Translations under genes and position numbers: made by a program
Shown here: piece after piece, positions 684 to 13,017 of the stretch
Layout: every line of letters starts with the position of its first letter
Numbering within the stretch: position 1 is the first letter of the stretch
The notes under the pieces: model-generated
The model's input: the letters and a program-made list of their open reading frames with translations, nothing else
Told to the model about the DNA's origin: nothing
Database searches by the model: none
From: an uncultured Candidatus Saccharibacteria bacterium
GTDB lineage: Bacteria; Patescibacteriota; Minisyncoccia; Minisyncoccales; MHMH01
Reading direction: 5' to 3'
NCBI GenBank assembly: GCA_964568775.1
Contig: CAZMQW010000005.1
Coordinates: 1 to 61,007, forward strand
DNA: 61,007 nucleotides

Positions 684-766
684 CTGTGTGCCCCGGTCTA
701 GTACCAAAGTTTTAAAGGGAAACTGGGACTGTTTTTGGCTTCCCCATTGACCCGTCTTGGTCGGCC
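684..766. repeat. Repeat family copy E (left arm + 28-bp core), just 3' of tRNA-Gln copy 1
   Basis: CTGTGTGCCCCGGTCTAGTACC...TTTTAAAGGG aligns with 11931-11970 and 9782-9810; core 739-766 matches copy B core at 21/28. Confidence 0.7.
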
Positions 767-787
767 ACGATACTACGCTGACTGATG

Positions 788-858
788 CTGCGGGGCTTGG
801 ATTCGAACCAAGAATTCCAGGGCCAAGGCCTGGCGTGTTACCATTGCACCACCCCGCA
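788..858 (-). tRNA. tRNA-Gln (TTG), copy 1, atypical C33, no encoded CCA
   Basis: Cloverleaf: acceptor TGCGGGG/CCCCGCA, anticodon arm CCAGG-CCTTGGC-CCTGG, T arm CTTGG-TTCGAAT-CCAAG. Confidence 0.85.
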
Positions 859-875
859 ATATTGAGTATTTTACC

Positions 876-1550
876 TTATTTCCCCTCTTTTTGCAACGCT
901 TCAACAATAGCCAGTTCCAAGGGCAATTGAGGGATTGAGGAATACTTCATTTTGTTCTCCGCTTCCATAAAAAGCTTGATAATGCGCTGCAAGTCCTGCT
1001 CAGTAAAATCGGCAACTTGCGATTGCAGTTTTTCCTGCTCTTCCTTGGTCAGCCCGACAATGACCGGATTGGCCGGGTTAGCCTCTATTTTCAGAATCAA
1101 GCCTTGCCTCAAATAGTAAATCAAAGCCTTGGTGAACTCCTGCACGTCCTTGCCTTTTTCCAGTGTTTTGTTGAGAAAATCAATAGCCTCACCCGCTTTC
1201 TGCTGGCAAAGGAAACCAAAGAATTCGCTGATCAGCTTGGTATCAACCATGCCCAGCAAGTCCTTGATGTTTTCAGCCTTAATCGGCTCTTTGGCAGCGC
1301 CAGAAAACGTCAGCACCTGATCAAGAAGGCCTTCAGCGTCCCTGATTGCCCCGCCAGAACTGAGAGCGATCAGTTCCAGGGCGGGCTTTTCAATTTTAAC
1401 CCCTTCTTTTTTAACCAAATACTCCAAACGGCTGACGATTTCTGACAGGGTCAGCTTACGGAAATCAAATCTTTGGCAACGGGAAATGATGGTCGGAATC
1501 ATTCTGTGGATTTCGGTGGTGGCCAGAACGAAGATAGCGTGGGCCGGCGG
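876..1550 (-). pseudogene. dnaX: 5'-truncated second copy of dnaX (C-terminal 224 aa; frame stays open back to a TTG at 1595)
   Basis: From PPAHAIF onward about 93% aa identical (16/224 differences) to 13018..14133; lacks Walker A, Zn site and Walker B. Confidence 0.85.
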
Positions 1551-1578
1551 GTTTTTGATAGGGTCGAAACTTTTATAA

Positions 1579-1959
1579 CTACTTAATTTTTTCAATAAAA
1601 TCCTTTATCATCTCAACAAGCTCGAGCGAAGTATGCTGCGATTTCACGAAATAATCATCTGCTCCCGCCCGCAAAGCCTTTTGGATGCCCTCATCCATGC
1701 TGAGTGACGTCAAAATAACCACCGGAATGCTTTTTGTCCGGGGGTCTTTTTTCAGCTCTTGCAGCACTTCAAAACCCGACTTCTTGGGAAGCAACAAATC
1801 AAGCAAGACCAGGTCTGGTTTTTTTGACCGTACCAGTCTTACGCCTTTTTCGCCGTCAAACGCTAATAATACATCAAACCCCGCCTTAACCAATTCCTCC
1901 CGCATGACAATGGACAGGACTTCATCGTCTTCGATAAGGGTTATTTTGGGCTTTTTCAT
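1579..1959 (-). CDS. Single-domain response regulator receiver
   Basis: LIEDD, DLVLLDLLLP (phospho-Asp), VVILTS, DDYFVK motifs; no output domain. Confidence 0.9.
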   Translation of the reverse strand: MKKPKITLIEDDEVLSIVMREELVKAGFDVLLAFDGEKGVRLVRSKKPDLVLLDLLLPKKSGFEVLQELKKDPRTKSIPVVILTSLSMDEGIQKALRAGADDYFVKSQHTSLELVEMIKDFIEKIK

Positions 1960-2690
1960 GGCTTAGTATTAGTTAATGGCAATCTGACATAAAATGTCGT
2001 TCCTTTGTCTTTTGCCGAATCGAACCAAATCTTCCCTTTGAGCAATTTGACTGTTTGGCCGGCAGCGTAAAGACCCAGCCCCAGACCCTCTTGGTTGAGT
2101 GATCGGGCGTTACCGGCCCGGGTGAATTTTTCAAAAATATGCTTTTGGTCTTTCTTGGGAATACCAATGCCGTTGTCCCGGACCATAAGACAAAAAGTTT
2201 CCTTGTCTTTCTTTAAGGAAACTTCGATCCTGCCCCCTTTGGGAGTATATTCAATAGCGTTTAAAAAAAGTGGTTGAAAAATATTATAGAAAGCAGCGCT
2301 GTCAATAACGGCCCGGAGCATTGGCGGATGCTTCTGAAAAGTGACCGAAATGTTCTTTTTGGCCGAGAACAAAACATATTCTTTCAGGAAGTTTTTGACA
2401 AACTTCACCAGGTCAAGCGAGCGCGGAGAAAAAACTATTTTCCCGTGTTCAATGCGGGATACGTTTAAAAGCACGGTAATCAGGTCGTTCAGACGCACGG
2501 CCGAGGCGTGAATAAGCGTCAGATATTCTTTGGAGTATTTTGTCAGTTTCCCGGTCCGAAGCAACAATTCAATCATCCACTTGATGCGGGTGACCGGATT
2601 GCGAAGCTGATGCGATGCCAGATAAACAAATTCCTCGCTCCCCCCTTTGACGCTTCTCTCTAAGTGGTTCGCTCTGCCAGCCATAGCCAT
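1956..2690 (-). CDS. Histidine kinase, HisKA + HATPase only (no sensor domain)
   Basis: ASHQLRNP H-box, NAIEY N-box, DNGIGI G1, FEKF F-box, GLGLGL G2. Confidence 0.9.
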   Translation of the reverse strand: MAMAGRANHLERSVKGGSEEFVYLASHQLRNPVTRIKWMIELLLRTGKLTKYSKEYLTLIHASAVRLNDLITVLLNVSRIEHGKIVFSPRSLDLVKFVKNFLKEYVLFSAKKNISVTFQKHPPMLRAVIDSAAFYNIFQPLFLNAIEYTPKGGRIEVSLKKDKETFCLMVRDNGIGIPKKDQKHIFEKFTRAGNARSLNQEGLGLGLYAAGQTVKLLKGKIWFDSAKDKGTTFYVRLPLTNTKP

Positions 2691-4436
2691 CTATTGCAAC
2701 TTATCTAACTCTTGGCGAAGATACTTTCTCATCTTGCCGATTGTCTGGCGCATATTCTTCAAATGAAATTTCATTTCTGGCTTAGCTCTCCTCTCAAAAC
2801 CATTTTTCAATTTTTCTATCCATTCCTCCAGCCCTTTCAAATCGTCGGCCAAGAGCTTGGTTAATTTATCAATGTCTCGAGCAGCTACCATTTTATAGGC
2901 AGCCCGCTTTCTCTTGAGCGACAAATAATACCAGGCGCTGATACTGACGCCCGAGACAATCAGCAAGAGAACAATTAAAGCAATTTCAAACCAACCCAAC
3001 TCAACCAAGCCCACCGAAATAATGGTTGCCGCTTTTATTTTTAGCGTTTCCGCTTCGGTCGGATAGCTGACAGCCCCCCGGCCGTCGCGAGCTGTGACCG
3101 TTAAGGTATACTGTCCCCTGGCTAACAGTTTTTCAACGCTAATCTCCCAATTACCCAGTTCATCGCTACTGGCTTGGCCGGAAAAGATTTCCTGGCCGGC
3201 TTTGTTTGATATCAGAATGTCGACAAAACCATTTGGCATTGTCTTGCCGGAAGCAAAAATAGGCTCTCCCTGGCTGATTGATTTGGTTATAAAACTGATG
3301 AAGGGAATCGGTAAGGGCAATATTTCAAAATCCAAATCGTCCTCAACCCCGTTGCCAGCCGCATCAAGGGCTCTGACAGTAACCGTGTGCTTGCCGGGTG
3401 CTTGGGGTAATAAAACCGTAGCGGGCGAGGTTATTGAAGTTGGCCCTTTGCCGTCTATAAAAACCAAGTATTCGGCCACGCCCGATAAACTGTCGTGCGT
3501 TTCATAGCTTATTTCAGGAACCGGGTTGTCGCTGACTTCATTGTCAATCTCTATTTCAAAGGGCAGAGGCGGAGTTGTATCAATTGATATTTTATAATGG
3601 GCTATTTTGCCCCAGCCGACATTGTTCTTGAACTGAACATGGCCGTACCAAACGCCTTCTTCCAGCACGCCAAACTTCTGGCCGGTAAAAAGCTTTTCTG
3701 CTATGTTTTTGGGGTCGCCGTTGGGGTCTTGGTCAATTTGAGTGGCTACCTTAATAACGTCATCCGGCACCTCCCAAAAAACTATCACTTCGCCCAAATG
3801 GTTGTACCACTGGGAAGGATCGGGATAAAGAGGAATCGTTAAAACTGGTTCTTGGGGCAGATTCTGAGCTGTCACCGGCTCTCTGATGACTTCCACGGGC
3901 GCGGGCGGTGCGGCGGATTCTGGGATTTCGGCCGGTTCCGGTCTGATTGTTTCCACGCCGATTCCCACGCTGGTTCCTTCAATCACTGAAAGCACATTAG
4001 TCCCCTTGCCATCGCTGGCTGTGACCACGGCCTCGGCTACGGTAATCTCGGCCGCTCCCGAACCCATGGCTTTAAAATTCAGCCTGATAATTTGCAAAGC
4101 GCTGCCCGAAACACCCTTGGAGGTACCGCCAATAAAAACAACTTCGCCGTTCTCGTTTGAAATGTCGGGTCCTTCAATCCAAAAATTGAATATCGAGTTA
4201 TCTTTTTCAACGCTTAAAAGTTCTAAAATATTATTTTGAAACAACACCTTGGCTGCAGCAGCATTAATATCAACTTCCTGGCTGTCAACTTTCAAATCAA
4301 CGTAAAATTCGTCACCAACGCCAAAACCGTCTATTTCAGTAATAAAGTATAATTTGGCAGCTTCAACATGATTCGCCAAACCAAGAACAATAAACAATGA
4401 ACAAGAAATTATTAAAAAGGTTTTTTTATAACTCAT
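2691..4436 (-). CDS. Surface protein: signal peptide, cohesin-like domain, Pro-rich linker, Ig-like domains, TM helix, cytoplasmic coiled coil
   Basis: N-terminal beta-rich domain (FYVDLKVDS...INAAAAKVLF...SIFNFWIEGP) resembles CPR cohesin domains; PAPGKHTVTVRALDAAGN Ig-like motif; hydrophobic FEIALIVLLLIVSGVSISAWYY. Confidence 0.65.
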   Translation of the reverse strand: MSYKKTFLIISCSLFIVLGLANHVEAAKLYFITEIDGFGVGDEFYVDLKVDSQEVDINAAAAKVLFQNNILELLSVEKDNSIFNFWIEGPDISNENGEVVFIGGTSKGVSGSALQIIRLNFKAMGSGAAEITVAEAVVTASDGKGTNVLSVIEGTSVGIGVETIRPEPAEIPESAAPPAPVEVIREPVTAQNLPQEPVLTIPLYPDPSQWYNHLGEVIVFWEVPDDVIKVATQIDQDPNGDPKNIAEKLFTGQKFGVLEEGVWYGHVQFKNNVGWGKIAHYKISIDTTPPLPFEIEIDNEVSDNPVPEISYETHDSLSGVAEYLVFIDGKGPTSITSPATVLLPQAPGKHTVTVRALDAAGNGVEDDLDFEILPLPIPFISFITKSISQGEPIFASGKTMPNGFVDILISNKAGQEIFSGQASSDELGNWEISVEKLLARGQYTLTVTARDGRGAVSYPTEAETLKIKAATIISVGLVELGWFEIALIVLLLIVSGVSISAWYYLSLKRKRAAYKMVAARDIDKLTKLLADDLKGLEEWIEKLKNGFERRAKPEMKFHLKNMRQTIGKMRKYLRQELDKLQ

Positions 4437-5785
4437 TATAGTTTCATCAAATTAAGAAATACGCTGAAATCGGCAATATTTATCTGGCCATCGCCGTTTA
4501 AATCAATCGTTGACCTGAGATTAATGTCTGCCTGGCCCCAGCGGAAGAGAAAAACGCTCCAGTCGGTAATATTAATCACATCATCCTCGTTAAAATCCGC
4601 CTGAGGAATTTTTAATAAAGAAACTCTTAAATCTTTAGCCAGAGAAAAACTGCTCACCTTGCCCGCCGAATCTATTTGTCTGACTTTGGCCGAATGCTTG
4701 TCAGCCGTTAAAACATCTGTGTTTATCAGGGCCGTCCAAAAACCGTTTTCATCAGCCCAGGCCGTCTTCACAATCATATTGTCAATATAAACTTCTATGA
4801 CATTACCCGAACCAGCATAACCAAAAATATAGCTTTCCTTGCCTCGCGTCACCGCTATTTTTTCCAGTGCCACGGTCGGTGGCATAAAAATATCTTTTGC
4901 TTCTAAAATATTCTCTGTTTTCAAATCTACATCAAACGCTATAATGCTTGTTTTCCGGCCGTCTCTATCTTCCGCTCGCAAAGCAAAAAAATATTCATCT
5001 GATACTAAAGCACCCAGACTCAGGTTAAACTTGCCATCAGCTGAAACCTGATACATTTCTAAAGGAACAACTAGATACTGGGCTTCTTCATCTGTACTGC
5101 CCCTTCTTAAAACCTCTATTTTACTTTCAGGATAGGCCTGACCAGAAAAAGCCACCTTCACTCTTCTAGTTGAACCTGTCGGTCCCCCTTCCACAGGTTC
5201 TTCGGGGAGAATATAGGTAATAACCGCTGAAATTTTACTAACCAGAGTGTTCCTGGCTTTTTTATTGGTTACTCCTATTTCAATATCGCTGCCTGAAGTT
5301 TTAGTGAAACTAACAATATGGCTCTGGGTACTCCCGTTATATTCTGCTAATACTGACGAAATATTTTCGCCATAATCAGCACAACTGCCATTATGGCAAT
5401 ACCGTGTTTGAAATGCCCCATTAAGTCCCTGTTTTCTGTAGCAGACCGTAATATCAATTTGGGTTACTGTCGAATTATCAGGAATACTTGATTCGTCAAT
5501 ATCAAATGTTTGGCTGGCTTCATTGATGCTACTGATAATATAAGAGACATCGCCATCGCTACTATTGGTACACTTAGAACCACTCAACTCATCAACTCCA
5601 GTATAGCAATTGGTTGCGTTACAAGGAGTCTCGTTTAAAGTATTGCCCCAATCAGCGCTGTCGTCCCCGCCGTCAGCTGTCGGCCGCAAACCGGCTGTGG
5701 TATCTGCTAAAACAACATTGCTCGACAGCCCGCCGACAACAAGTAAGATTAATAAAATCTTAAAGCGAAGCATTAAAGTTTTCAT
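4436..5785 (-). CDS. Secreted protein with C-terminal dockerin-like duplicated Ca-binding loop
   Basis: Signal peptide; DFNEDDVINITDWSVFL and DLNGDGQINIADFSVFL repeats; Cys-rich N-terminal domain. Confidence 0.7.
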   Translation of the reverse strand: MKTLMLRFKILLILLVVGGLSSNVVLADTTAGLRPTADGGDDSADWGNTLNETPCNATNCYTGVDELSGSKCTNSSDGDVSYIISSINEASQTFDIDESSIPDNSTVTQIDITVCYRKQGLNGAFQTRYCHNGSCADYGENISSVLAEYNGSTQSHIVSFTKTSGSDIEIGVTNKKARNTLVSKISAVITYILPEEPVEGGPTGSTRRVKVAFSGQAYPESKIEVLRRGSTDEEAQYLVVPLEMYQVSADGKFNLSLGALVSDEYFFALRAEDRDGRKTSIIAFDVDLKTENILEAKDIFMPPTVALEKIAVTRGKESYIFGYAGSGNVIEVYIDNMIVKTAWADENGFWTALINTDVLTADKHSAKVRQIDSAGKVSSFSLAKDLRVSLLKIPQADFNEDDVINITDWSVFLFRWGQADINLRSTIDLNGDGQINIADFSVFLNLMKL

Positions 5786-5789
5786 CCAT

Positions 5790-6266
5790 TTATCTTGGCT
5801 TTGATCTTTCTGTCTTATCCTCTTGTCCTTTTGAAGGTTCTTTGGTTTCAGCCTCTTGGTTTTTTGCTGGCTTTTTGGCTTTTGGATGCTGCTCTTTCCC
5901 GAAAAAATTACTGACCATACCTACAATCTCACTAATGGCGTGCTGTGATTTGACTATGTAGTCATTGGCTCCCAAGCGAAGACCCTTCTTAATATCGTCA
6001 TCCCGACCAAGCATAGTCAGAACAATAACAGGAATGCTGCGAGTAACTGGAGATTTTTTAATCTCTTCCAGCACGCTGAACCCGTCTTTTTTAGGCAGAA
6101 TGAGGTCAAGCAAAACCAAGTCTGGTTTCTCAGCCCTGACCAACCTTAAACCTTCCTCGCCGTCAAAAGCTTGCGATACATCAAAATCTCCCTCAGACAG
6201 TTCCTCATAAATAACTTTAGCTAAGACCTCATCGTCTTCTATCAAAAGTATTTTTAGCTTTGCCAT
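5790..6266 (-). CDS. Response regulator receiver with charged C-terminal tail
   Basis: LLIEDD, DLVLLDLILP, ANDYIVK motifs; paralog of 1579..1959. Confidence 0.9.
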   Translation of the reverse strand: MAKLKILLIEDDEVLAKVIYEELSEGDFDVSQAFDGEEGLRLVRAEKPDLVLLDLILPKKDGFSVLEEIKKSPVTRSIPVIVLTMLGRDDDIKKGLRLGANDYIVKSQHAISEIVGMVSNFFGKEQHPKAKKPAKNQEAETKEPSKGQEDKTERSKPR

Positions 6267-6292
6267 TTTTTTATTATAACTTAATTAAATAA

Positions 6293-7903
6293 TTAAGCCA
6301 AAGGCTTGCTTCCTTTTTTCGACCTTACTTTAAGAGGAAGCTCAATATAAAAGGTACTCCCTTTGTTCTCTTCTGATTCAAACCAAATCTTGCCCTGCAA
6401 AAGATCAACTGTGCTTTTGGCAAAATAAAGACCGAAGCCGATACCATCGGTCTTCATTAGTTTGGCATTGGTCCCCCGGGTGAATTTATCAAAAATAATT
6501 GGCTGTTCTTTTTTAGGTATGCCAATACCATTATCACTAATTATCAAAAGAAAAGTGCGCTCTTTCTTTCTCAAGGACACCTCCACCCTGCCTCCCTTGG
6601 AAGTGTATTCAAGAGCGTTAGAAACAACCGCTTGCACAATAGTGTGCAAGGCGCTGATATCGGTAACTACGTTAAGGGTTTTGGGGTGTTTTTGGAAAAC
6701 AACAGTTAGGTCCTTTTTGTCACAGAGCGGACTGCATTCGTCAAGATAATCATCGACAAACTCTACTAATTCCAACGCCTTGGGAGAAATACTTACCTCA
6801 CCCCCTTCAATCCGAGATACGTTCAACAAAAGATCAACTAAATTAGAAAGGCGTTGAAAACTGGTGTGAATGTCTTTAAGGTATCCTTTCCCTTTTTCGC
6901 TTAACTTTTCCTCTTTTTTCATGAACCGTTCTACTACCCATTGAGCACCAGTCAAGGGAGTGCGGAGTTGGTGTGAAGCAATAGAAATAAAATCGCTTCT
7001 CATTTTGTTGGTTTTCTTTTGTTGTTTTAATTCTACTTCCAACCTGCTCTTTTCCGCTACTACTGCCTCAGCTTTTTTCTGCTCGGTGATGTCTTCGATG
7101 GCCAGAAGTATTCTTTCCGGTTGCGCTGGCGGCGGAGGTATGCGTCGAGCATTCAAAAGCATTATTCGTTTGCCAATCTTTGGGAATTTATGCTCAACTT
7201 CAAAGTTATCAAATATTGCGTGCTTGGGAAGTATTTTCTCTAAGAGCTGGCGTAGTTTAGGAATATTCCATTGGCGATTCCCTAAATTATAGATAAATTT
7301 CCCCTCCGTCTCCCTGGGTACTACTTTAAAAATCTGATAAAAAGAGCGGCTGGCGGAAACTACCTTTAAGTCTCTATTCAGAACTAAAAATGGTTCACGC
7401 ACAGTGTTAACAATACTCTCAGCATAGTCACGGGTCTTCCGGGCGTCTTGTTTCATCAACGTGCGCTCGGTGATATCTTCAATGGCCAGTAAGATTAACT
7501 CTTCTTCTTCTTCTTCTTCTCCTCCTGTTATTGCCCTGGCTATTTTTTTTGGGATGCGCATTTGACGAGCGTTCAGGCTTATAATCCGGTGTCCAATTTT
7601 TTTGAAATCATGCTCAATTTGGTAATCTATTACAACCGTTTTATTAGACAAAATATTTTTTAATAGATGGATTAATTTTGGGATATTCCACTGGCGATTA
7701 CCTAAACTAGGAATTAGTCGACCGACCGTTTCTTTTTTAGTGGCCTTGAAAGTATTAAAGAAAGACCGGTTGGCAGAAACAACCCGCAAGTTTTTATCAA
7801 GGACCAAAAATGGCTCTCTCAATGTAGCGATAATACTTTCGGCATACTTTAAAGCTGTTTTAACTGTCCTTTCTGTTTGTTTTGGCTTTCTTATTTTTTT
7901 CAC
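6293..7903 (-). CDS. Cytoplasmic PAS-PAS sensor histidine kinase
   Basis: Two near-duplicate PAS domains (AESII/VxTxREPFLVL...LGNRQWNIPKL), ASHQLRTP H-box, DNGIGI, GIGFGL; no TM segment. Confidence 0.9.
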   Translation of the reverse strand: MKKIRKPKQTERTVKTALKYAESIIATLREPFLVLDKNLRVVSANRSFFNTFKATKKETVGRLIPSLGNRQWNIPKLIHLLKNILSNKTVVIDYQIEHDFKKIGHRIISLNARQMRIPKKIARAITGGEEEEEEELILLAIEDITERTLMKQDARKTRDYAESIVNTVREPFLVLNRDLKVVSASRSFYQIFKVVPRETEGKFIYNLGNRQWNIPKLRQLLEKILPKHAIFDNFEVEHKFPKIGKRIMLLNARRIPPPPAQPERILLAIEDITEQKKAEAVVAEKSRLEVELKQQKKTNKMRSDFISIASHQLRTPLTGAQWVVERFMKKEEKLSEKGKGYLKDIHTSFQRLSNLVDLLLNVSRIEGGEVSISPKALELVEFVDDYLDECSPLCDKKDLTVVFQKHPKTLNVVTDISALHTIVQAVVSNALEYTSKGGRVEVSLRKKERTFLLIISDNGIGIPKKEQPIIFDKFTRGTNAKLMKTDGIGFGLYFAKSTVDLLQGKIWFESEENKGSTFYIELPLKVRSKKGSKPLA

Positions 7904-8120
7904 AGTTTTTAATTAATGTAATAATTAAAAAAACCACCACTTAAATCAGCGATGGAAATTCATGCTTAATATTAAACTTGCACTAAAACTAAAATTCCGA
8001 ACCCGGCTTCGTCTCTCTCGGTATGTAAAAATTATAAAATTCCCAAGCCTCATGTCCCTCTAGTATATATTATACCACAAGGCCTTGTGATAACAAACTG
8101 TGGATAACCCTTTGACCTCA

Positions 8121-8867
8121 TTAAATCTGTATTTTCGAAAACAGATAACTGCCCACCGAAAGCAATAACAGCGTTATCGCTCCCAAGACCAAGAAATCCA
8201 AGCTGAGACCGAAATGGGCTCCGTTGACCAAGGTAGCGCGCAAACCGTCAACCCCGTAAGACAGAGGGTCAATGCTGGCCACGATACTGATTGCTTTGGG
8301 CAAGTTTTCAAGAGGAAAAAGGGCGCCCGAAAGGAAGAACAGCGGCATAACGAGAAAATTCATGATGAGCTGAAAGCCCTGCATATCTTCCAAGACCGAA
8401 GCGATGGCCGTTCCCAAGGCGGAAAAAAGAACGGCGATGAGAAACATGAAAACCAGCCCCAAGGGCAGCATGGCCAGATTGCCGAGTCGGAAGCCGATGA
8501 AAAACGAAATACAGAGAACGATGATGCCCTGGAGAGTGGCCACCGTTGCCCCGCCCAAAGTCCGGCCGATCATGATCTTGAACCGCGACACCGGAGCAAC
8601 CAGGGTCTCTTTGAGAAATCCGAACTGTTTGTCCCAGATGATTTCAATGCCGGAGAATACGGCGGTAAAAAGAATGCTCATGGCAATGATGCCCGGGGCC
8701 AAAAACTGGATGTAGTCTCCCCCGCCGGCCCTTTGGTAAATCGGGCCGAAACCGAAACCGAGCGCCACCAGGAAAAGCAGCGGCTGTCCCAAAGAACCGA
8801 TGATCCGCGCCCTGGAGCGGTAATGCCTTTTCAATTGTCGCAGCCAAAGTATGTAAATCGTGCTCAT
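8121..8867 (-). CDS. ABC-2 type exporter permease (DrrB-like)
   Basis: Six hydrophobic segments; FGFLKETLVAPV and DPLSYGVDGLR motifs. Confidence 0.88.
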   Translation of the reverse strand: MSTIYILWLRQLKRHYRSRARIIGSLGQPLLFLVALGFGFGPIYQRAGGGDYIQFLAPGIIAMSILFTAVFSGIEIIWDKQFGFLKETLVAPVSRFKIMIGRTLGGATVATLQGIIVLCISFFIGFRLGNLAMLPLGLVFMFLIAVLFSALGTAIASVLEDMQGFQLIMNFLVMPLFFLSGALFPLENLPKAISIVASIDPLSYGVDGLRATLVNGAHFGLSLDFLVLGAITLLLLSVGSYLFSKIQI

Positions 8868-8879
8868 GTTTTTTTAATT

Positions 8880-9668
8880 TTATCTTCGGTGCATCCTTCG
8901 ACGCATTCTCAGCCGGTCAAGGGAACCGGCTTCTTCCTCGCGGATAGTGTTTCCCGTCAAAGCCAGGAACGCATCCTCCAAAGAAGCGGTCTTGGTGCTA
9001 TATTTGAGTTCGGCGGGCGTACCCGTAGCGATAATCTTGCCGTGGTCGATAATGGCAATCCTTTGAGCGATCTTTTCCGCTTCCTCCATGTAATGGGTGG
9101 TGAAAAAAATCGTCATCCCTTCTTTCTCGTTCAAATTCTTAATGTGGCTCCAAATATGGCTTCTCGTCTGGGGGTCGAGGCCGAGCGTCGGTTCGTCCAA
9201 AAAAAGTATCTTGGGATGATGAATCAATCCCCTGGCGACCTCGAGCCGCCGCTTCATGCCTCCGGAAAATTTCTTGACCAGTTCGTCTCTCCTCTCCCAA
9301 AGTTCAACGAACTTCAGCAACTGTTCTATTCTTTCCCGGCGAATCTGCTTGGGCACCCTGTAAAGTACGCCGTGAAATTCCATGTTCTCGCGAGCGGTCA
9401 GCTCATCGTCCAGACTTTGGTCTTGAAAAACTATACCGAAAGAACGACGCACCTCGTTCTTTTCCTTGGCTACGTCGCTCCCGTTCAAATTAATTGACCC
9501 GGCGCTGGGACGCAAAAGCGTAATCAACATTTTGATAGTAGTAGTCTTGCCAGCACCGTTCGGTCCCAAAAAACCGAAAATCTCCCCTTTCTTTACCTTG
9601 AAGGATATGTTGTCAACCGCAATGAATCCATTGAACTTTTTCGTTAAATTCTTAACTTCTATCATCAA
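8880..9668 (-). CDS. ABC exporter ATP-binding subunit (DrrA-like)
   Basis: GPNGAGKTT, FSGGMKRR, ILFLDEPT. Confidence 0.92.
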   Translation of the reverse strand: MMIEVKNLTKKFNGFIAVDNISFKVKKGEIFGFLGPNGAGKTTTIKMLITLLRPSAGSINLNGSDVAKEKNEVRRSFGIVFQDQSLDDELTARENMEFHGVLYRVPKQIRRERIEQLLKFVELWERRDELVKKFSGGMKRRLEVARGLIHHPKILFLDEPTLGLDPQTRSHIWSHIKNLNEKEGMTIFFTTHYMEEAEKIAQRIAIIDHGKIIATGTPAELKYSTKTASLEDAFLALTGNTIREEEAGSLDRLRMRRRMHRR

Positions 9669-9781
9669 GTTTTTAATTTATTAAAAACGCAGGTGGAAAA
9701 GATGGTTTATCTTCTTTGACTATAACGCTATTTTACCAAAAAACCGCCCTATTGGCGACTTTCTGAACATAATGCTGGCAT

Positions 9782-9864
9782 CCTCGGTCTAGAACCAGGG
9801 TTTCAAGGGGAATTTCGGGGTTTTAGAGGGTGTCTCAATAACGCGTCTAGGTCGGGGTATTTTT
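9782..9864. repeat. Repeat family copy D (left arm + core, no right arm)
   Basis: CCTCGGTCTAGAACC..GGGTTTCAAGGGG then core GTGTCTCAATAACGCGTCTAGGTCGGGG (9830-9857; 23/28 to copy B). Confidence 0.75.
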
Positions 9865-9882
9865 GTATTATATCAAAATAAA

Positions 9883-9914
9883 AAGGAGTTTAGAAATTTC
9901 CTTCTAAACTCCTT
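9883..9914 (-). terminator. Intrinsic terminator of 9922..10548
   Basis: Perfect 13-bp stem AAGGAGTTTAGAA/TTCTAAACTCCTT with T-rich tail on minus strand. Confidence 0.75.
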
Positions 9915-9921
9915 AAAACGG

Positions 9922-10548
9922 CTATTCCCGATCTTGTATTGTGGAGAGTATTAATTCCTCTATTTCCACTATTCGGCCAAGCTCAAGTGCCACATTATAG
10001 AGATGTTCTCGAGATTGAACCCAACCCTTTACGGTCTCGCCCAAGTGTTTCCAGATTTCTTCTAGTTCTGTTTTCGTCATGTCGACAATCGTGATTAAGT
10101 CTGATTCTTGAATGTCCACCGTTTCGGCTTTCTCATAACCCCGGCGCTTATATCTTACTTCGCCTTTAAAAGTGACTTCTACCAAAACCCAAAGAGCATT
10201 TCTGGTAAGACCCCAGATGTACATTTTGCCATCAGGAATAGAACCCTCGCCGGGAGCACCGCGGAAACCGCTATCCGGAATTCTCTGAATACCAGAGTAA
10301 GGGCGGTCGAAAATGCCCTGAGTTTTGAGAGAAAACCTCTCATCTCCTATTAGAGTCGGGCTATCAAAGCGCAACTCGTGACTAAAAGTCTCTGTTCTCA
10401 AACACTTTAGATCACCTAGCTCAGATAAGGTAAATGAATTAAGGTGCGGTTTGATGAGTGAGTGGCGAGCCTCTATTAGTTGGTGCCACTCTCCAGCTGT
10501 TAGTGGTTTCTTTCGAGCTAACAATTCTAGTCCTTCGGTATTGGGCAT
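9922..10548 (-). CDS. Hypothetical protein (cassette gene between copies A and D)
   Basis: 208-aa ORF with AAGGAGG SD, TTGACA-16-TAAATT promoter-like site and own terminator. Confidence 0.75.
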   Translation of the reverse strand: MPNTEGLELLARKKPLTAGEWHQLIEARHSLIKPHLNSFTLSELGDLKCLRTETFSHELRFDSPTLIGDERFSLKTQGIFDRPYSGIQRIPDSGFRGAPGEGSIPDGKMYIWGLTRNALWVLVEVTFKGEVRYKRRGYEKAETVDIQESDLITIVDMTKTELEEIWKHLGETVKGWVQSREHLYNVALELGRIVEIEELILSTIQDRE

Positions 10549-10634
10549 ACCCTCAACCTCCTTTTTTTATTTCTGAAAGGCGTACCCTTCAGATATTATA
10601 ATTTAGCACTTACATTTTTTATGTCAACTTCGGT

Positions 10635-10694
10635 GTGTGCCACTGATCCAACTCGGTCAGGGATTTTTAAGCTAAAATGGGACAAATGGGACAC
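10635..10694. repeat. Repeat family copy A (core + right arm, 60 bp)
   Basis: GTGTGCCACTGATCCAACTCGGTCAGGGATTTTTAAGCTAAAATGGGACAAATGGGACAC; extra TGGGACAC box at 10714-10721. Confidence 0.85.
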
Positions 10695-10818
10695 AGAAAG
10701 GGGGTGTACCATTTGGGACACTGTAGTGTGCCATTATAAAAGAAAAACCGCCTCAACTAATTTAATAGTATATTGGCGGAAGTAATTAGTCTACTCGGTT
10801 TCTTAATAGTGTCAGCTC

Positions 10819-11124
10819 CTACCAAGAATCTCTACCGAATCTTTCAGGGTGATTTTTGATAAAGAAGATTACCCTGACAAGAGCCAGTAGGAAAAGAGCG
10901 TCTCCTATCCCCATTACTAAGTAATGAAGAATATTGAAATGGAGCCCTTCTTCAGCTGACATAACCCCGAAGAATTGTAGAGTATAGCTCGGGCCAATTA
11001 TTATAAGAGCTAAACACCCTATACTTAGCACCCACTCCACTACTTGGTCTGCGAATAACAGAAAGGGCTGAACTCTACCATACACTAAGAAGTTATCGAG
11101 CTTCCAGTATAACCATTCAAACAT
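10819..11124 (-). CDS. Hypothetical membrane protein
   Basis: 101 aa, two hydrophobic helices, AAAGGAGG SD. Confidence 0.7.
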   Translation of the reverse strand: MFEWLYWKLDNFLVYGRVQPFLLFADQVVEWVLSIGCLALIIIGPSYTLQFFGVMSAEEGLHFNILHYLVMGIGDALFLLALVRVIFFIKNHPERFGRDSW

Positions 11125-11135
11125 CTTTTCCTCCT

Positions 11136-11477
11136 TTATTTCTCGAAAATATAATGTCGCCCCTCGAACGGGTCAGCACCTTTTTCGTTAAAAACGATGC
11201 CGTGTTTCTTACAGAAGTGGCGAAGAAGATTGAGAAAACCTTCTTCTTTGGAAGCGTCAATAGTCACACTGATGCACCATCGCCGTCCGTACGAACCGAA
11301 ATCAACATTGCCGCCGGTTTCTTTTGTATACATTATCGGCAGAAATAGATCTCCGACATCAACGTGTAATTCCTCTTCTATCTTTTTCTTGATATCATCT
11401 GGGTCACCCTGCTCTGGCAACATTATCTTTATTGATAAGGTCTTCTGATAAATAACCATCCCTTTATTATTCGACAT
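11136..11477 (-). CDS. Hypothetical protein
   Basis: 113 aa, AAAGGAGG SD, upstream TTGATT-16-TAAAGT promoter-like site. Confidence 0.7.
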   Translation of the reverse strand: MSNNKGMVIYQKTLSIKIMLPEQGDPDDIKKKIEEELHVDVGDLFLPIMYTKETGGNVDFGSYGRRWCISVTIDASKEEGFLNLLRHFCKKHGIVFNEKGADPFEGRHYIFEK

Positions 11478-11564
11478 CTTTTGTGCTACCTCCTTTATTT
11501 AGTATTCTCTACTTTACCACTCTTTAAATAAAAATCAAGCCCATCTCGGGCTCGAAAATTATAC

Positions 11565-11624
11565 GTGTCCCACTGACCCGTCTCGGTCGGGGCTTTTATT
11601 CGGGAAATGGGACAAATGGGACAC
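11565..11624. repeat. Repeat family copy B (core + right arm, 60 bp, terminal inverted GTGTCCCA/TGGGACAC)
   Basis: GTGTCCCACTGACCCGTCTCGGTCGGGGCTTTTATTCGGGAAATGGGACAAATGGGACAC. Confidence 0.85.
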
Positions 11625-11636
11625 TGGCTATAATTT

Positions 11637-11861
11637 TTATTCTCCTTGTGATCTGGCTTCTGGCTCTTCCAGTGACTCATCTTTATATCCTCCAAGCACG
11701 CTGCCACAATTCTCACAATGAATTAATATCACCGGATGAACGTCGGTACCCTCCCCGTGTTCTGAAGTCATAATCTGTAAACCATAAGGCAACCCATAAA
11801 TTTTATTTTCTGCTCCGCAGTGTGGACATTTAATTTTATTTTTCATAATACTTATATTCAC
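11637..11861 (-). CDS. Small zinc-ribbon protein (probable start MKNKIKC at 11849)
   Basis: CPHC...CENC pair in 70-74 aa. Confidence 0.65.
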   Translation of the reverse strand: MNISIMKNKIKCPHCGAENKIYGLPYGLQIMTSEHGEGTDVHPVILIHCENCGSVLGGYKDESLEEPEARSQGE

Positions 11862-11930
11862 CGCTTATTTTTAATTAATTCTTCGACTTTTTAGAGGCGG
11901 CTCGGTCGCCCAGAACTGCGCTCAAGGTGG

Positions 11931-12046
11931 CTGTGTACCTCAGTTCTGAACCCCGGTTTTAAAGGGGTTTTTGGGCGGTTTTGGACGTGTCCCACTTAGG
12001 TGTCTCAGTCGGGGCTTTTTAAGCTAAAATGGGACAAATGGGACAC
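11931..12046. repeat. Repeat family copy C (left arm + core + right arm; the only complete copy)
   Basis: Left arm 11931-11986 aligns to D and E; 60-bp unit 11987-12046 GTGTCCCACTTAGGTGTCTCAGTCGGGGCTTTTTAAGCTAAAATGGGACAAATGGGACAC; extra CTCGGTCGCCC box at 11901. Confidence 0.85.
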
Positions 12047-12112
12047 GAATTAGAGATATTTTCGATGTCTCGTTTTTCGTCTAAATCTATAAATAGAACT
12101 AGAAGTCCTCTT

Positions 12113-12826
12113 TTAGAAACAACAGTCATCAAGAGTCGGCCTAGCATCTGAACAGGTGTAATTTCCCTTATGAGAAGCAGTATGCCATTCCCCGCCTTCG
12201 AGGGTAGCATAGATACAAAATTTTTGATCATCACTAGTATTATCAACCCAAACATAAGGAGTTTTAGTGTCTTCCAAAGGATCAATTGGGACATCCATCA
12301 TATAAGAACCAATGGATGAGGGCCAAGTTTTGCCATCGCTTTGATAATAACACCAATCTCCTCCACCATAATATATCTCTTGAGCGGTAACTATCATTCG
12401 CATATCAGACTTTCTTGTGACGTCTCGAACCATTATCTTCGCTTTCTCCTGTTGCACTATGACTTCGGCCATAGTCCAAATTATACTCTCCATCTCTATC
12501 TTCAATCCTTCTAATTCCGCTTCGGTCATTGCAATGGGTTCTTCTTTGACTGTCCTTTGCCATATTTCATTTTTCAACTCTTCTTTTTCATCTTCTGTGA
12601 TCTTAAACTCTATACCCTCCTTTTCCGCCTTTTCTTCCACTTTTTTTATTAACATTTCCATCATTTCTGTCGCTACTTGGGTTGGCGCTATCAAACCATT
12701 TTCTCTTTCAATTTCTAATGTTTCACCTTCTTCTTCTCCCAGATATTGCCAAATAAAATATCCTCCGCCAATAAGAATAACCAGTATAATTATAATTCCG
12801 ATTGTAGAAAAAGATTTGTTATTCAT
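12113..12826 (-). CDS. Membrane-anchored protein with C-terminal type IV pilin/GspG-like globular domain
   Basis: N-terminal TM after KSFS; RDVTRKSDMRMIVTAQEIYY, VPIDP and FCIYATLE resemble CPR pilin motifs; Cys-rich end. Confidence 0.65.
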   Translation of the reverse strand: MNNKSFSTIGIIIILVILIGGGYFIWQYLGEEEGETLEIERENGLIAPTQVATEMMEMLIKKVEEKAEKEGIEFKITEDEKEELKNEIWQRTVKEEPIAMTEAELEGLKIEMESIIWTMAEVIVQQEKAKIMVRDVTRKSDMRMIVTAQEIYYGGGDWCYYQSDGKTWPSSIGSYMMDVPIDPLEDTKTPYVWVDNTSDDQKFCIYATLEGGEWHTASHKGNYTCSDARPTLDDCCF

Positions 12827-12926
12827 AATAACCTTATGTTAATAATCTTTCCTTATTATAACATATGTGATGCGTTTCGGTCGCCCTGGCCAGATATGCA
12901 TCTCGGTCACCTGACTTAGTATATGA

Positions 12927-13000
12927 TGGCTGCGGGGCTAGGACTCGAACCTAGATACACAGATCCAAAATCTGTTGTCCTACCGTTAGACGACCCCGCA
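12927..13000 (-). tRNA. tRNA-Gln (TTG), copy 2, encoded CCA
   Basis: Cloverleaf with anticodon arm ACAGA-TTTTGGA-TCTGT, T arm CTAGG-TTCGAGT-CCTAG, G73-CCA. Confidence 0.95.
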
Positions 13001-13017
13001 ATACAGGTTATTTTACC

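Follow-up and report, generated by a model that had tools for sequence, protein, structure and literature searches.

Behind a dnaX–tRNA-Gln gene pair in a 61,007-nt contig (the window, that is, the whole stretch of DNA analyzed here), five repeats separate units of one or two genes. What are these repeats, and how did the units come to be stacked between them? A preliminary description had proposed a cassette array built at a 28-nt core by a recombinase acting in trans. We find a repeat family of composite architecture that is linked to tRNA-Gln and shows alternative junctions within populations at the tRNA terminus CAGCCA. We lean toward the view that the region between two tRNA-Gln genes is an accretion array of integrase-less mini-cassettes, with the repeats as attR-type junction sites, and we read the array as a genomic island of a familiar type, here in miniature and without an integrase.

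The repeat family and its architecture

An nhmmer profile made from 12 complete copies, all from outside the window, gave five matches in it, elements A to E, with E-values from 5e-42 to 5e-14 and no further credible match in the 61 kb. All five are confined to the 12 kb behind tRNA-Gln and the other 48 kb of the contig contain none, so the copies are clustered rather than scattered. As had been suspected, they form a genuine, unrecognized family: the element has no match in Rfam, phage and plasmid BLAST searches with it returned nothing, and literature searches found no published description. A pattern for the 28-nt core, allowing ≤3 mismatches, matches A, B, and C (chance expectation 0.00), as does the tandem TGGGACAAATGGGACAC box (chance expectation 0.15). 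By direct reading, the cores of A, C, and D are each identical to that of B at 23 of 28 positions and the core of E at 21; the shared core and its variable 6-nt spacers are as listed earlier.

The full element spans ∼165 to 200 nt and is read on the minus strand, as the tRNA and all cassette genes are. Five to six GTGTNCCA/TGGNACAC boxes, oriented either way, come first (three more GTGTNCCA boxes than first described), their exact conservation being partly an artefact of the search pattern by which the copies were collected. There follow the 28-nt dyad core, whose plus strand also scores as a hairpin with a T-run; a conserved spacer of ∼30 nt; a pseudo-tRNA 3′ end, which contains a T-arm-like GGTTCNNGAC/GGTTCAGAAC segment and has the terminus CAGC[C/A]A, like that of the local tRNA-Gln; and a flank or terminator homologous to the DNA behind genuine tRNA-Gln genes. 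In our reading, the five repeats of the window, all on the minus strand, are complete or partial copies of this one composite junction site. In element C (11887–12056; profile positions 19–183, E = 5e-42), the alignment covers two boxes and the core, then the spacer, the pseudo-tRNA end (…GGTACACAGCCA), and an extended flank; the far-right boxes are missing. Element A (10629–10739; positions 108–218, E = 1e-31) has the core, two tandem boxes, and a further three at the far right, without spacer or pseudo-tRNA arm. Element D (9738–9864; positions 25–148, E = 1e-20) consists of a degenerate core, spacer, pseudo-tRNA end (…GGATGCCAGCA), and terminator, without boxes. Element B (11564–11624; positions 113–173, E = 3e-19) is a core with two boxes and nothing more, followed by a minus-strand intrinsic terminator detected by a terminator scan at 11555–11535. 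Element E (653–764; positions 27–139, E = 5e-14) has core, spacer, pseudo-tRNA end (…GGGGCACACAGCAA), and a terminator at 673–655, found by the same type of scan. The alignment bears out the arm distribution given previously: C has both arms, D and E only the left, and A and B only the right. The copies had been correctly recognized and their lengths drawn too short: C, D, and E run 30 to 45 nt further left, and the right arm of A, rightly identified, ends three boxes later, at 10739.

The left arm, formerly treated as an arbitrary arm, is instead a tRNA-3′-end-like sequence joined to a tRNA-Gln-type flank. The pseudo-tRNA arm itself is generically T-arm-like and has its own conserved sequence, in two subtypes, which differs from the resident tRNA-Gln; since it was not copied from that gene, it either travels with the element or is conserved for another reason. 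The flank behind it resembles the flanks of tRNA-Gln (z = 6–14), those of other tRNAs giving z < 2, and the 12-copy nhmmer profile weakly matches the tRNA-Gln genes of the window, L058, L049, and L001. Partial copies break at the core: A and B begin exactly there, and D, E, L044p, L047p, L048p, and L057p stop exactly past it, which amounts to at least six independent loci. A core-like half-site, GACCGAGA, is present at ∼20 nt behind both tRNA-Gln genes and 8 of 13 pseudo-tRNA ends.

The family is found in Nealsonbacteria, Saccharibacteria, and Microgenomates contigs and is thus conserved between classes of the candidate phyla radiation (CPR). Complete copies occur in the Saccharibacteria MAG L035 (identical to L044) and in the metagenome contigs L040, L041, L047–L049, L051, L053, and L057–L060. 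The Microgenomates MAG L034 carries a variant form, as do L036, L046, L050, and L056, in which the boxes and the tRNA-like end are kept and the inner core is replaced by a different sequence. At other loci, a complete copy and a partial core/left-arm copy stand 0.6 to 2 kb apart with one or two genes between them.

tRNA-Gln genes, cassettes, and junctions

ARAGORN identifies two tRNA-Gln(UUG) genes in the window, at 787–858 (copy 1) and 12927–13000 (copy 2, minus strand; Rfam tRNA, 61.8 bits). Copy 2, which terminates in ...CCCCGCAGCCA, anchors the array directly behind the full-length dnaX (371 aa; 13018–14133, minus strand). Both genes belong to a direct repeat of about 770 nt comprising tRNA-Gln and 3′ dnaX (783–1550 versus 12924–13692; 83% nucleotide and 92.9% amino-acid identity). 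Repeat copy 2 takes in the 3′ 675 nt of full-length dnaX, and repeat copy 1, also on the minus strand, comprises a truncated dnaX′ (ORF 876–1595) and tRNA-Gln copy 1, 22 nt past which element E begins. Through this duplication, absent from the preliminary description, the whole region is flanked by two tRNA-Gln genes. The flank behind tRNA-Gln copy 2 (12869–12926, minus strand) has two GACCGA(G/A)A motifs like the left half of the core and is homologous to the flank behind the pseudo-tRNA arm of L041; the half-boxes noted earlier at 12875–12909 are present, reading GACCGA on the gene strand.

The proposal that one- to two-gene units are stacked behind dnaX–tRNA-Gln and delimited by the repeats is supported. 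Cassette 1 (12113–12826, minus strand, as are all that follow) is a 237-aa ORF with an N-terminal transmembrane helix (“pilin-like”) and no match in Pfam, PADLOC, or PHROG; the Logan unitig L075 covers exactly this cassette, from CAGCCA to the boxes of C. Cassette 2 is a 74-aa zinc-ribbon ORF (11637–11861), and cassette 3 (10819–11477) combines a 113-aa ORF (11136–11477), homologues of which are found in other CPR accessory arrays, with a 101-aa membrane ORF (10819–11124). Cassette 4, a 208-aa ORF (9922–10548), has no Pfam match and belongs to a protein family confined to Patescibacteria; consensus scans agree with the previously described promoter of this gene, which is TTGACA/TATAAT-like (10627–10598), and with terminators past it (9914–9883) and past B. 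Between D and the truncated dnaX′ lies an 8.2-kb block (1551–9737, minus strand) encoding an ABC-2 transporter pair, two histidine-kinase/response-regulator pairs, and two large Ig-like or dockerin surface proteins.

Compared across relatives, the cassette content behind dnaX–tRNA-Gln is completely different: L001 has nothing there, L004 a small island with a repeated tRNA end, and L073 a seven-gene array in which 90-nt repeats made of pseudo-tRNA end and terminator stand on both sides of the homologue of the 113-aa gene. A complete element lies 0.9 to 1.4 kb from tRNA-Gln, in the same relative orientation, in the window, L049, and L058, and the cargo between them differs each time (a pilin-like gene, a methyltransferase, or membrane and zinc-ribbon proteins).

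Alternative junctions are also seen within populations. L052 is 100% identical to window positions 10973–12932 and then switches within ...GATGGCTG, the tRNA-Gln copy 2 of the window being replaced by a pseudo-tRNA/core element. L049 and L057 are 98% identical across 1129 nt, up to a common ...CAGCAA, past which L049 has tRNA-Gln and L057 a pseudo-tRNA/core element. In the assembly graph, CAGCCA is a branch point, and it is precisely there that L075 begins. All junctions resolved to the nucleotide coincide with a 3′ terminus, either that of tRNA-Gln or that of the pseudo-tRNA arm, 85 to 90 nt from the 28-nt core. Because alternative junctions lie exactly at CAGCCA/CAGCAA in three independent contigs, they point to site-specific insertion at this tRNA 3′ end.

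Proposed accretion at tRNA-Gln and its alternatives

Under the accretion model, cassettes of one or two genes, most with their own promoter or terminator, would have been stacked by site-specific recombination targeting the 3′ extremity of tRNA-Gln. An incoming circular cassette would recombine at CAGCCA, leaving the tRNA intact and pushing older cassettes away, and the resulting junction would have an attR-type layout of the element's own arm, the crossover region, and the distal side of the target. Junctions left by earlier insertions could serve for a time as secondary targets; the partial forms A, B, D, and E would be what decay or further recombination has made of them. The boxes may bind the recombinase or an accessory protein, the enzyme would act in trans, encoded by a phage, a plasmid, or another part of the genome, and the core may be a second recombination or binding site; the dnaX′–tRNA-Gln copy 1 probably came with an 8- to 10-kb segment from a related lineage. 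Since partial copies break at the core borders and not at CAGCCA, recombination at the tRNA end alone is insufficient.

A contig search agrees with the preliminary description that the 61-kb contig contains no recombinase, and none adjoins most copies elsewhere; only in L021 is a recombinase, of the large serine type, in contact with an element-like site. The tyrosine type proposed for the trans-acting enzyme is an analogy. This lack of a linked recombinase counts against accretion. So do the pseudo-tRNA arm, whose conserved sequence differs from the resident tRNA-Gln; the one-gene cassettes without a mobility function, unusually small for tRNA-targeting islands; the several copies with no tRNA-Gln nearby (none within 4 to 12 kb of readable sequence in L044, L048, L040, L059, and L060); and the failure to observe circular cassette forms or empty sites directly.

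In the model first proposed, the 28-nt core is the crossover of a tyrosine-type recombinase and a complete arm-core-arm site acts like an integron attI, bare-core circles inserting so as to split it into right arm-core, gene, and core-left arm. The dyad core with its variable 6-nt spacer, the partial copies that begin or end exactly at the core, and the half-sites behind tRNA-Gln genes and pseudo-tRNA ends are all consistent with this model. Elements A and D do bracket the 208-aa gene as predicted; however, A and B both retain the right arm, which a simple single-site insertion does not predict, and the cores of A and D are identical at just 17 of 28 positions. The variant family with its different inner core and the absence of a linked recombinase also argue against the model. 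The core is unproven as the crossover, because nucleotide-resolved junctions, including the three in populations, occur only at CAGCCA-type tRNA ends, and the case for it comes down to the partial copies ending at the core borders. We consider this model unlikely.

We regard it as improbable that the element is a cis-acting expression module rather than a recombination site; it would then be either an insulator or terminator with operator boxes or a processed RNA whose end is tRNA-like. The core would terminate antisense transcription, with a terminator past the pseudo-tRNA end, the boxes would be operators for a DNA-binding regulator, and the element would have spread only because cassettes were copied along with their regulatory ends. 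Such a role would suit the co-orientation of the element with both neighbor genes at 12 or more loci, the plus-strand terminator scored at the core of A, B, and C, and the minus-strand terminator past every left arm. The 60-nt core/box unit also folds better than shuffled sequences (z = −4.75 for B, minus strand), and unrelated phage contigs (L006 and L010) have GGGACA-box arrays, apparently protein-binding, immediately 3′ of P4-alpha-like primase genes; these arrays have the box motif in common with the element and otherwise no homology. However, compensatory changes are absent on both strands (RNAalifold covariation terms of −1.19 and +0.75 kcal/mol), the box pairs are invariant, the Rfam search was negative, and the second subtype, read from the sequences, cannot form the T-arm-like hairpin. 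The module would also leave unexplained the junction polymorphism at the tRNA 3′ end, the tRNA-Gln-flank homology, and the split partial copies.

A MITE-like non-autonomous transposon with GTGTCCCA/TGGGACAC terminal inverted repeats, inserted between genes and then decayed, is very improbable. The 60-nt core/box unit does have perfect 8-nt terminal inverted repeats, copies are present in several genomes, and an IS3-type transposase ORF, identified from its translation, adjoins the copy in L059. However, the transposase association is not consistent, no target-site duplication is visible, the copies are clustered and always in the same orientation to neighbor genes, and the conserved unit far exceeds the inverted-repeat interval, taking in the tRNA-like arm and flank. 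An assembly artefact, with two related strains fused at repeated k-mers to create an apparent duplication and array, is scarcely credible: A and C do have an exact 31-nt stretch in common, the window is the entire contig and ends in noncoding DNA 650 nt past E, and short contigs of other samples break in this region, but independent contigs of other samples confirm 10269–11390 (L038) and 10973–12932 (L052) at 100% identity, the same architecture recurs in unrelated contigs, and dnaX′ is fused to a response-regulator gene without a repeat at the joint, so the duplication is independent of any repeat-based join.

Comparison with known systems

Lambda-like tyrosine integrases recognize arrays of arm-type sites in attP, and the ori/crr of phage P4 contains iterons bound by the alpha primase. 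The boxes of the element resemble both in being several short direct or inverted motifs, ∼9 to 10 nt apart, on one side of a crossover or origin; unlike those, they have no known binding protein. Xer-dependent modules include IMEX elements and the pdif modules of Acinetobacter plasmids. Like these, the element has a 28-nt dyad site with a 6-nt central region and accompanies small recombinase-less modules of the kind moved by a host enzyme, but its cores are all in direct orientation, whereas pdif sites alternate, its core is unlike the dif consensus, it has long arms, and its mapped junctions are at the tRNA end rather than in the core. Integron arrays (IntI, attI, attC) share with the locus co-oriented one- to two-gene units between structured 60- to 170-nt sites, cassettes without a recombinase, and content that varies among close relatives. 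Here, in contrast, an intI gene and an attI/Pc platform are absent, the sites lack RYYYAAC/GTTRRRY ends, each cassette brings its own promoter and terminator, and the anchor is a tRNA 3′ end.

In streptococci, ICEs undergo accretion with cis-mobilizable elements (CIMEs). The tycheposon-seeded islands of Prochlorococcus (Hackl et al., bioRxiv 10.1101/2020.12.28.424599) are likewise integrative islands that target a tRNA and grow by tandem accretion. The present array, as modeled here, is like such islands in its insertion at a tRNA gene that is kept intact, the driving of older insertions deeper by each new one, the partial tRNA copies between neighboring units, the degenerate remnants and extra partial tRNAs scattered within, the junctions that are heterogeneous in populations, and the integrase-less units, which can persist and may be mobilized in trans. 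It differs in that its units are 0.4 to 1 kb, with one or two genes and no integrase, replication, or excision module, its hosts are CPR/Patescibacteria, and no recombinase is on the contig. The separator, too, is more than a plain tRNA fragment: a conserved composite of 165 to 200 nt, it combines five to six GTGTNCCA boxes and a dyad core with a pseudo-tRNA sequence particular to the element. Since its left arm pairs a tRNA-3′-end-like sequence with a tRNA-Gln-type flank, the system is better placed as a variant of classical tRNA-targeted island accretion than as a wholly new class.

Layout of the array and its repeats

The contig, all 61,007 nt of which make up the window, is assigned by its Pfam domains and dnaX homologues to Candidatus Nealsonbacteria (Parcubacteria). 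The stretch at 684-12915 is best explained as an accretion array at the tRNA-Gln 3' end, built of mini-cassettes that lack an integrase, in which five repeats (elements A to E) would represent junction sites of the attR type along with partial derivatives of these. The minus strand carries every gene between 700 and 14133, and the five sites separate four cassettes and an 8-kb block. Two tRNA-Gln(UUG) genes, copy 1 (787-858) and copy 2 (12927-13000), lie on the minus strand and reach full-tRNA scores with ARAGORN and Rfam. On the same strand, copy 1 is preceded by a 5'-truncated dnaX' (876-1595) and copy 2 by full dnaX (13018-14133, 371 aa). The two regions form direct repeats (783-1550 and 12924-13692, 83% nucleotide identity), and with tRNA-Gln genes at both sides the array is therefore the interval between them, a point overlooked in the preliminary description. 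The C-terminal DnaX parts share 92.9% protein identity, the best relatives being lower at 90% and 87%; an exact look-up of the window DnaX protein returned no record. Because the copies are 92.9% alike as protein and 83% as nucleotides, their nucleotide differences are mostly synonymous. Each must have evolved as a functional gene, the two in related lineages, before one of them became a fragment. On the accretion reading, the 8.2-kb block with the attached dnaX'-tRNA-Gln copy 1 would be a larger unit originating in a related lineage, and no att-like motif was seen at the joint of its response-regulator gene and dnaX'.

A profile built from 12 complete copies of the element from outside the window was searched against the 61-kb contig. 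It recovered C (11887-12056, E 5e-42), which is without the far-right boxes; A (10629-10739, E 1e-31), with the core and all right-hand boxes; D (9738-9864, E 1e-20) and E (653-764, E 5e-14), each a left arm with a degenerate core; and B (11564-11624, E 3e-19), with the core and two boxes. None of the five is complete. The 60-nt copies of A, B and C are 78-83% identical, and the core and the tandem TGGGACA box each occur three times in the window against a chance expectation of about 0. The core identities, spacers and distribution of arms first reported were all confirmed by direct reading, and the copies are not scattered on this contig: all five fall within 12 kb, and the other 48 kb yielded no credible further match to the profile. 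The profile also weakly matches the tRNA-Gln genes of the window and of the comparison contigs L058, L049 and L001.

Several further features were recorded on the contig. Its end (1-650) contains no ORF, gives no Rfam hit and matches none of the comparison loci; 20 nt of it (24-43) are similar to a section of element E (730-749), and the array may therefore run on, decayed, to the contig end. A 536-aa sensor kinase (6293-7903) contains an internal direct repeat spaced by about 384 nt (7081-7112 and 7465-7496), as would fit a duplication of the sensor domain. In a 534-aa ThyX-like ORF (51375-52979), the Thy1 domain matches residues 321-469 only, with a long N-terminal extension ahead of it.

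Outside the window, the pattern GTGTSCCA-N30-45-TGGGACAAATGGGACAC matched one Saccharibacteria MAG and one Microgenomates MAG among the species-representative genomes, and a slightly looser pattern matched 28 metagenome contigs, of which 12 carry the complete element of about 165-200 nt. In plus orientation the complete element reads, after a flank, TGGCTG(GCATCC/TGTGCC)-(CCGGTCTAGAACC/CCAGTTCTGAACC)-GGTTTTAAGGGG…GGTTTTGG and continues as GTGTCCCACTGACCCGYCTCGGTCGGGG-CTTTTTAAGCTAAAA-TGGGACAAATGGGACAC-AGAAAGGGGG-TGTTCCATTTGGGACAG-N5-GTGTGCCR. The copies were found through their boxes, so that part of the apparent box invariance is an ascertainment bias. A second, partial copy comprising left arm and core lies 0.6-2 kb from the complete one in L044, L047, L048 and L057. 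A variant family (L034, L036/L054, L046, L050 and L056) keeps the boxes with an unrelated middle, and joins a tRNA-3'-end-like sequence directly to the first box; the Rfam tmRNA model matches 13 nt of the T-arm in the L036 variant. At all loci inspected, which number at least 12, the genes to either side of the element are encoded on the strand with its tRNA-like sense.

Pseudo-tRNA ends and alternative junctions

In minus-strand sense, the left arm (for example CCTGG-TTCTAGA-CCGGG-GATGCCA-G-C(C/A)A) has the layout of the local tRNA-Gln 3' end (CTAGG-TTCGAGT-CCTAG-CCCCGCA-G-CCA). Each unit closes with such a T-arm-like sequence, CAGC[C/A]A last, followed by a tRNA-Gln-like flank. An intrinsic terminator lies 10-25 nt past the arm; the CCA-ending copies instead have a hairpin with GACCGAG. 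When the 45 nt past the arm were scored against shuffles in comparison with the 45 nt past tRNA genes, z reached 14 for the tRNA-Gln of L049, 11 for that of L004 and 6-8 for those of window copy 2, L058 and L001, as against less than 2 for the flanks of tRNA-Glu, Val, Ala, Lys, Ser and Thr. In the shuffle-scored comparison, the arm itself resembles a T-arm in a generic way only, and it is not a copy of the resident tRNA-Gln. It occurs as two subtypes, each with a matching core motif (CGGTC with CGGTC, CAGTT with CAGTC), and hybrids between them include E and the partial copies at L044 and L057. A functional tRNA, tmRNA or minihelix was rejected, as ARAGORN finds none at the elements, acceptor pairing amounts to 4-5 bp in one subtype and is absent in the other, and the second subtype is unable to form a T-arm.

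The window, L049 and L058 each have a complete element 0.9-1.4 kb from tRNA-Gln, in equal relative orientation, and the cargo between element and tRNA-Gln is unrelated among the three. Three independent observations place alternative junctions at the last tRNA bases, CAGCCA or CAGCAA. The contig L052, from another sample, is 100% identical to window 10973-12932, past which it has a pseudo-tRNA/core element where the window has tRNA-Gln copy 2; the switch falls at …GATGGCTG on the plus strand, that is, CAGCCA on the tRNA strand. L049 and L057 are 98% identical over 1129 nt (element, methyltransferase gene and terminator), and after the common …CAGCAA the former continues into tRNA-Gln and the latter into a pseudo-tRNA/core element. 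A 916-nt Logan unitig (L075) with the pilin-like cassette starts exactly at CAGCCA and stops inside the boxes of C, as would be expected if its ends were branch points in the assembly graph. Insertion thus falls at the 3' part of the tRNA and leaves it intact, judging from the three junctions and from the full scores of both tRNA-Gln genes. The switches are flanked by only ~6 identical bases, too few for ordinary homologous recombination, and site-specific exchange at the tRNA end would therefore be the simplest reading.

The preliminary description had placed the crossover in the 28-nt core, and the core may be the crossover site, though this is the less likely reading: partial copies break at its borders at at least six loci and a core-like half-site lies ~20 nt after both tRNA-Gln genes. 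However, the junctions observed in populations map to the tRNA end. The breaks at core borders speak for the original proposal and the population junctions against it.

Cassette content and candidate recombinases

That the content of the locus would differ among relatives was borne out. The closest relative, L001 (90% DnaX identity), has dnaX, a LAGLIDADG-like ORF, tRNA-Gln and a terminator, and then housekeeping genes. L004 (87%) has a small ORF past tRNA-Gln followed by a tRNA-end repeat, CCGCAGCAAATTYCCGYCT. In L073, dnaX-tRNA-Gln is followed by seven small co-oriented genes, among them a homologue of the 113-aa gene between two 90-nt repeats (7251-7340 and 7870-7958) that consist of another pseudo-tRNA end (GGTTCTAACTTCGTCCA…CAGCAAAT), a terminator and a -10 box. 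This variation between relatives makes the locus a recurrent hotspot. The LAGLIDADG-type homing-endonuclease-like ORF between dnaX and tRNA-Gln was recognised, from the translation alone, in L001 (about 11170-11850, not called as a gene) and in L049 (5244-5957); the window is without it.

Small co-oriented genes on other CPR contigs are divided by a second intergenic repeat family, GGTTCTAAC-N-TCGTCCA…CAGCAAAT with a hairpin and T-run behind it (L073 7251-7340 and 7870-7958; L004 11504-11584; L065 4255, 7486 and 8222; L048 4007). Here the logic of a pseudo-tRNA end and terminator between one-gene units recurs in a repeat family of another kind. One terminator module, GCCCGAGAG-loop-CTCTCGGGCTTGATTTT, stands in near-identical form after unrelated small genes of different CPR contigs (window 11535-11555; L064 7747, 8200 and 10235; L065 7613), and L064 reuses promoter modules as well, which suggests that the cassettes may have standard expression ends in common.

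The window cassettes are co-oriented, several units have terminators, and at least the 208-aa unit has its own consensus-like promoter, TTGACA-N16/18-TAAATT/AATTAT in a promoter scan. On the minus strand a terminator comes after E, after B and after the 208-aa gene, and on the plus strand the core itself scores as one in A, B and C. Searches of the cassette proteins with Pfam, PADLOC and PHROGs assigned the zinc ribbon only. Homologues of the 208-aa and 113-aa proteins occur in other co-oriented small-gene arrays that are without this element family, and in L069-L072 homologues of the 113-aa protein lie in an accessory island with genes for Fic, NUDIX and RadC proteins, a type I restriction-modification system, a Shedu (SduA) gene and an rve-family transposase. 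The cargo comprises surface, membrane and zinc-ribbon proteins and methyltransferases, and has neighbours linked to anti-phage defence.

In agreement with the initial reading, no recombinase is present in the window: a Pfam scan that covered the large majority of contig ORFs from about 100 aa upwards, and every such ORF in or beside the array, gave no Phage_integrase, Resolvase or transposase domain, and no Xer gene was found on the contig. The neighbour genes of 13 loci include no consistently linked recombinase. A 436-aa large serine recombinase lies 0.9 kb past the left arm in L049, and an IS3-type transposase abuts the element in L059. L021, a 32.5-kb IMG/VR contig, carries an element-like site (10012-10115, profile positions 70-184, E 2e-8) with boxes, a spacer-like part and a tRNA-end-like part; it overlaps the 3' end of a gene for a 570-aa large serine recombinase (10074-11786). 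The contig also encodes a second recombinase, with 52% identity to the L049 enzyme, and a DUF4238/TPR pair whose DUF4238 protein shares 66% identity with one next to the complete L044 element; ParB-methylase genes are present too. We regard this possible association with serine recombinases as a lead and not as a demonstration. To our knowledge, arm boxes are not normal at serine-recombinase sites. Relatives of the L021 recombinase were found in no other viral contig, and no element-like site was seen beside L049-type recombinases.

Alternative explanations and comparison with known systems

An alternative of minor standing is that the element is a regulatory or RNA module; such a role, as terminator or insulator, may also be an additional function of a recombination site. 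Against the alternative, Rfam has no match, the second subtype is unable to form the T-arm-like hairpin, and compensatory changes lend support on neither strand. RNAalifold on 11 complete copies gave double-change pairs at 1 of 27 and 1 of 35 predicted pairs on the two strands, with covariation terms of -1.19 and +0.75 kcal/mol. A structured RNA as the main explanation was rejected in the absence of covariation in single-sequence or both-strand alignment folds, and a known RNA family because Rfam, at gathering and permissive thresholds, returned tRNAs and noise only for the window and nine loci.

A Xer/dif-type site was discarded since all cores have one orientation, whereas pdif modules alternate, and no Xer gene was found among the contig ORFs scanned; the 28-nt core is also unlike the dif consensus. 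A MITE or REP-type repeat fits neither the clustering of the copies on this contig nor the absence of a flanking duplication.

Viral contigs gave 29 matches to the 17-mer box, which, L021 excepted, are other GGGACA-box arrays and not homologues. Direct and inverted GGGACA boxes were observed in the IMG/VR contigs L006 (199-215), L010 (2778-2794), L005, L007, L009 and others, and on small 4-6-kb contigs such arrays are found immediately 3' of a gene for a P4-alpha-like primase/helicase (L006 313-2220; L010 2862-4463). They look iteron-like and have the box motif alone in common with the window element. The core and left-arm/core patterns had no match in viral contigs, BLAST of the complete element found none in phage and plasmid records, and literature searches on the box motif, Patescibacteria cassettes and CPR tRNA islands found nothing relevant.

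CPR/Patescibacteria genomes are very small, and the routes by which they acquire accessory genes are poorly understood. If the accretion reading holds, dnaX-tRNA-Gln is a dedicated landing pad at which single genes are stacked and exchanged without mobility machinery of their own. The composite site, conserved in at least three CPR classes, would then be a searchable marker for such loci and for a flexible gene pool, and the CAGCCA junction, the 28-nt core and the box array offer substrates for finding the recombinase. We think it possible, but rather unlikely, that the locus represents an integron-like cassette capture of CPR, with the tRNA-Gln 3' end as primary attachment site and 1-2-gene cassettes that carry a ~165-nt attC-like GTGTNCCA-box/core/pseudo-tRNA site. 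The cassettes would be inserted, excised and shuffled by a recombinase acting from another location, which could be a host enzyme or a large serine recombinase. If true, this would give tiny genomes a dedicated accessory-gene locus.

Integrons have intI beside attI and Pc at the array head, whereas the head of the window array is dnaX-tRNA-Gln and no recombinase domain was found. Integron attC sites run from RYYYAAC to GTTRRRY, whereas elements A-E and the 12 complete copies end in GTGTNCCA ... TGGNACAC; the lack of attC-type ends claimed at the outset was upheld by direct reading, which found no GTTRRRY in any of them. Integron cassettes are co-oriented and mostly promoterless; the window cassettes are likewise co-oriented, but at least the 208-aa unit has a promoter and several units have terminators. 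The proposed accretion array agrees with tRNA-targeting islands in its insertion at the 3' part of an intact tRNA and in its tandem units between att copies, with content varying among relatives; such islands carry an integrase at one element end, which the array is without. The closest known systems are the tycheposon islands, which are tRNA-seeded and grow by successive integrations (bioRxiv 10.1101/2020.12.28.424599), together with ICE/CIME accretion. From both, the window array differs in unit size, in having no mobility gene, in its elaborate, conserved composite site and in its host group.
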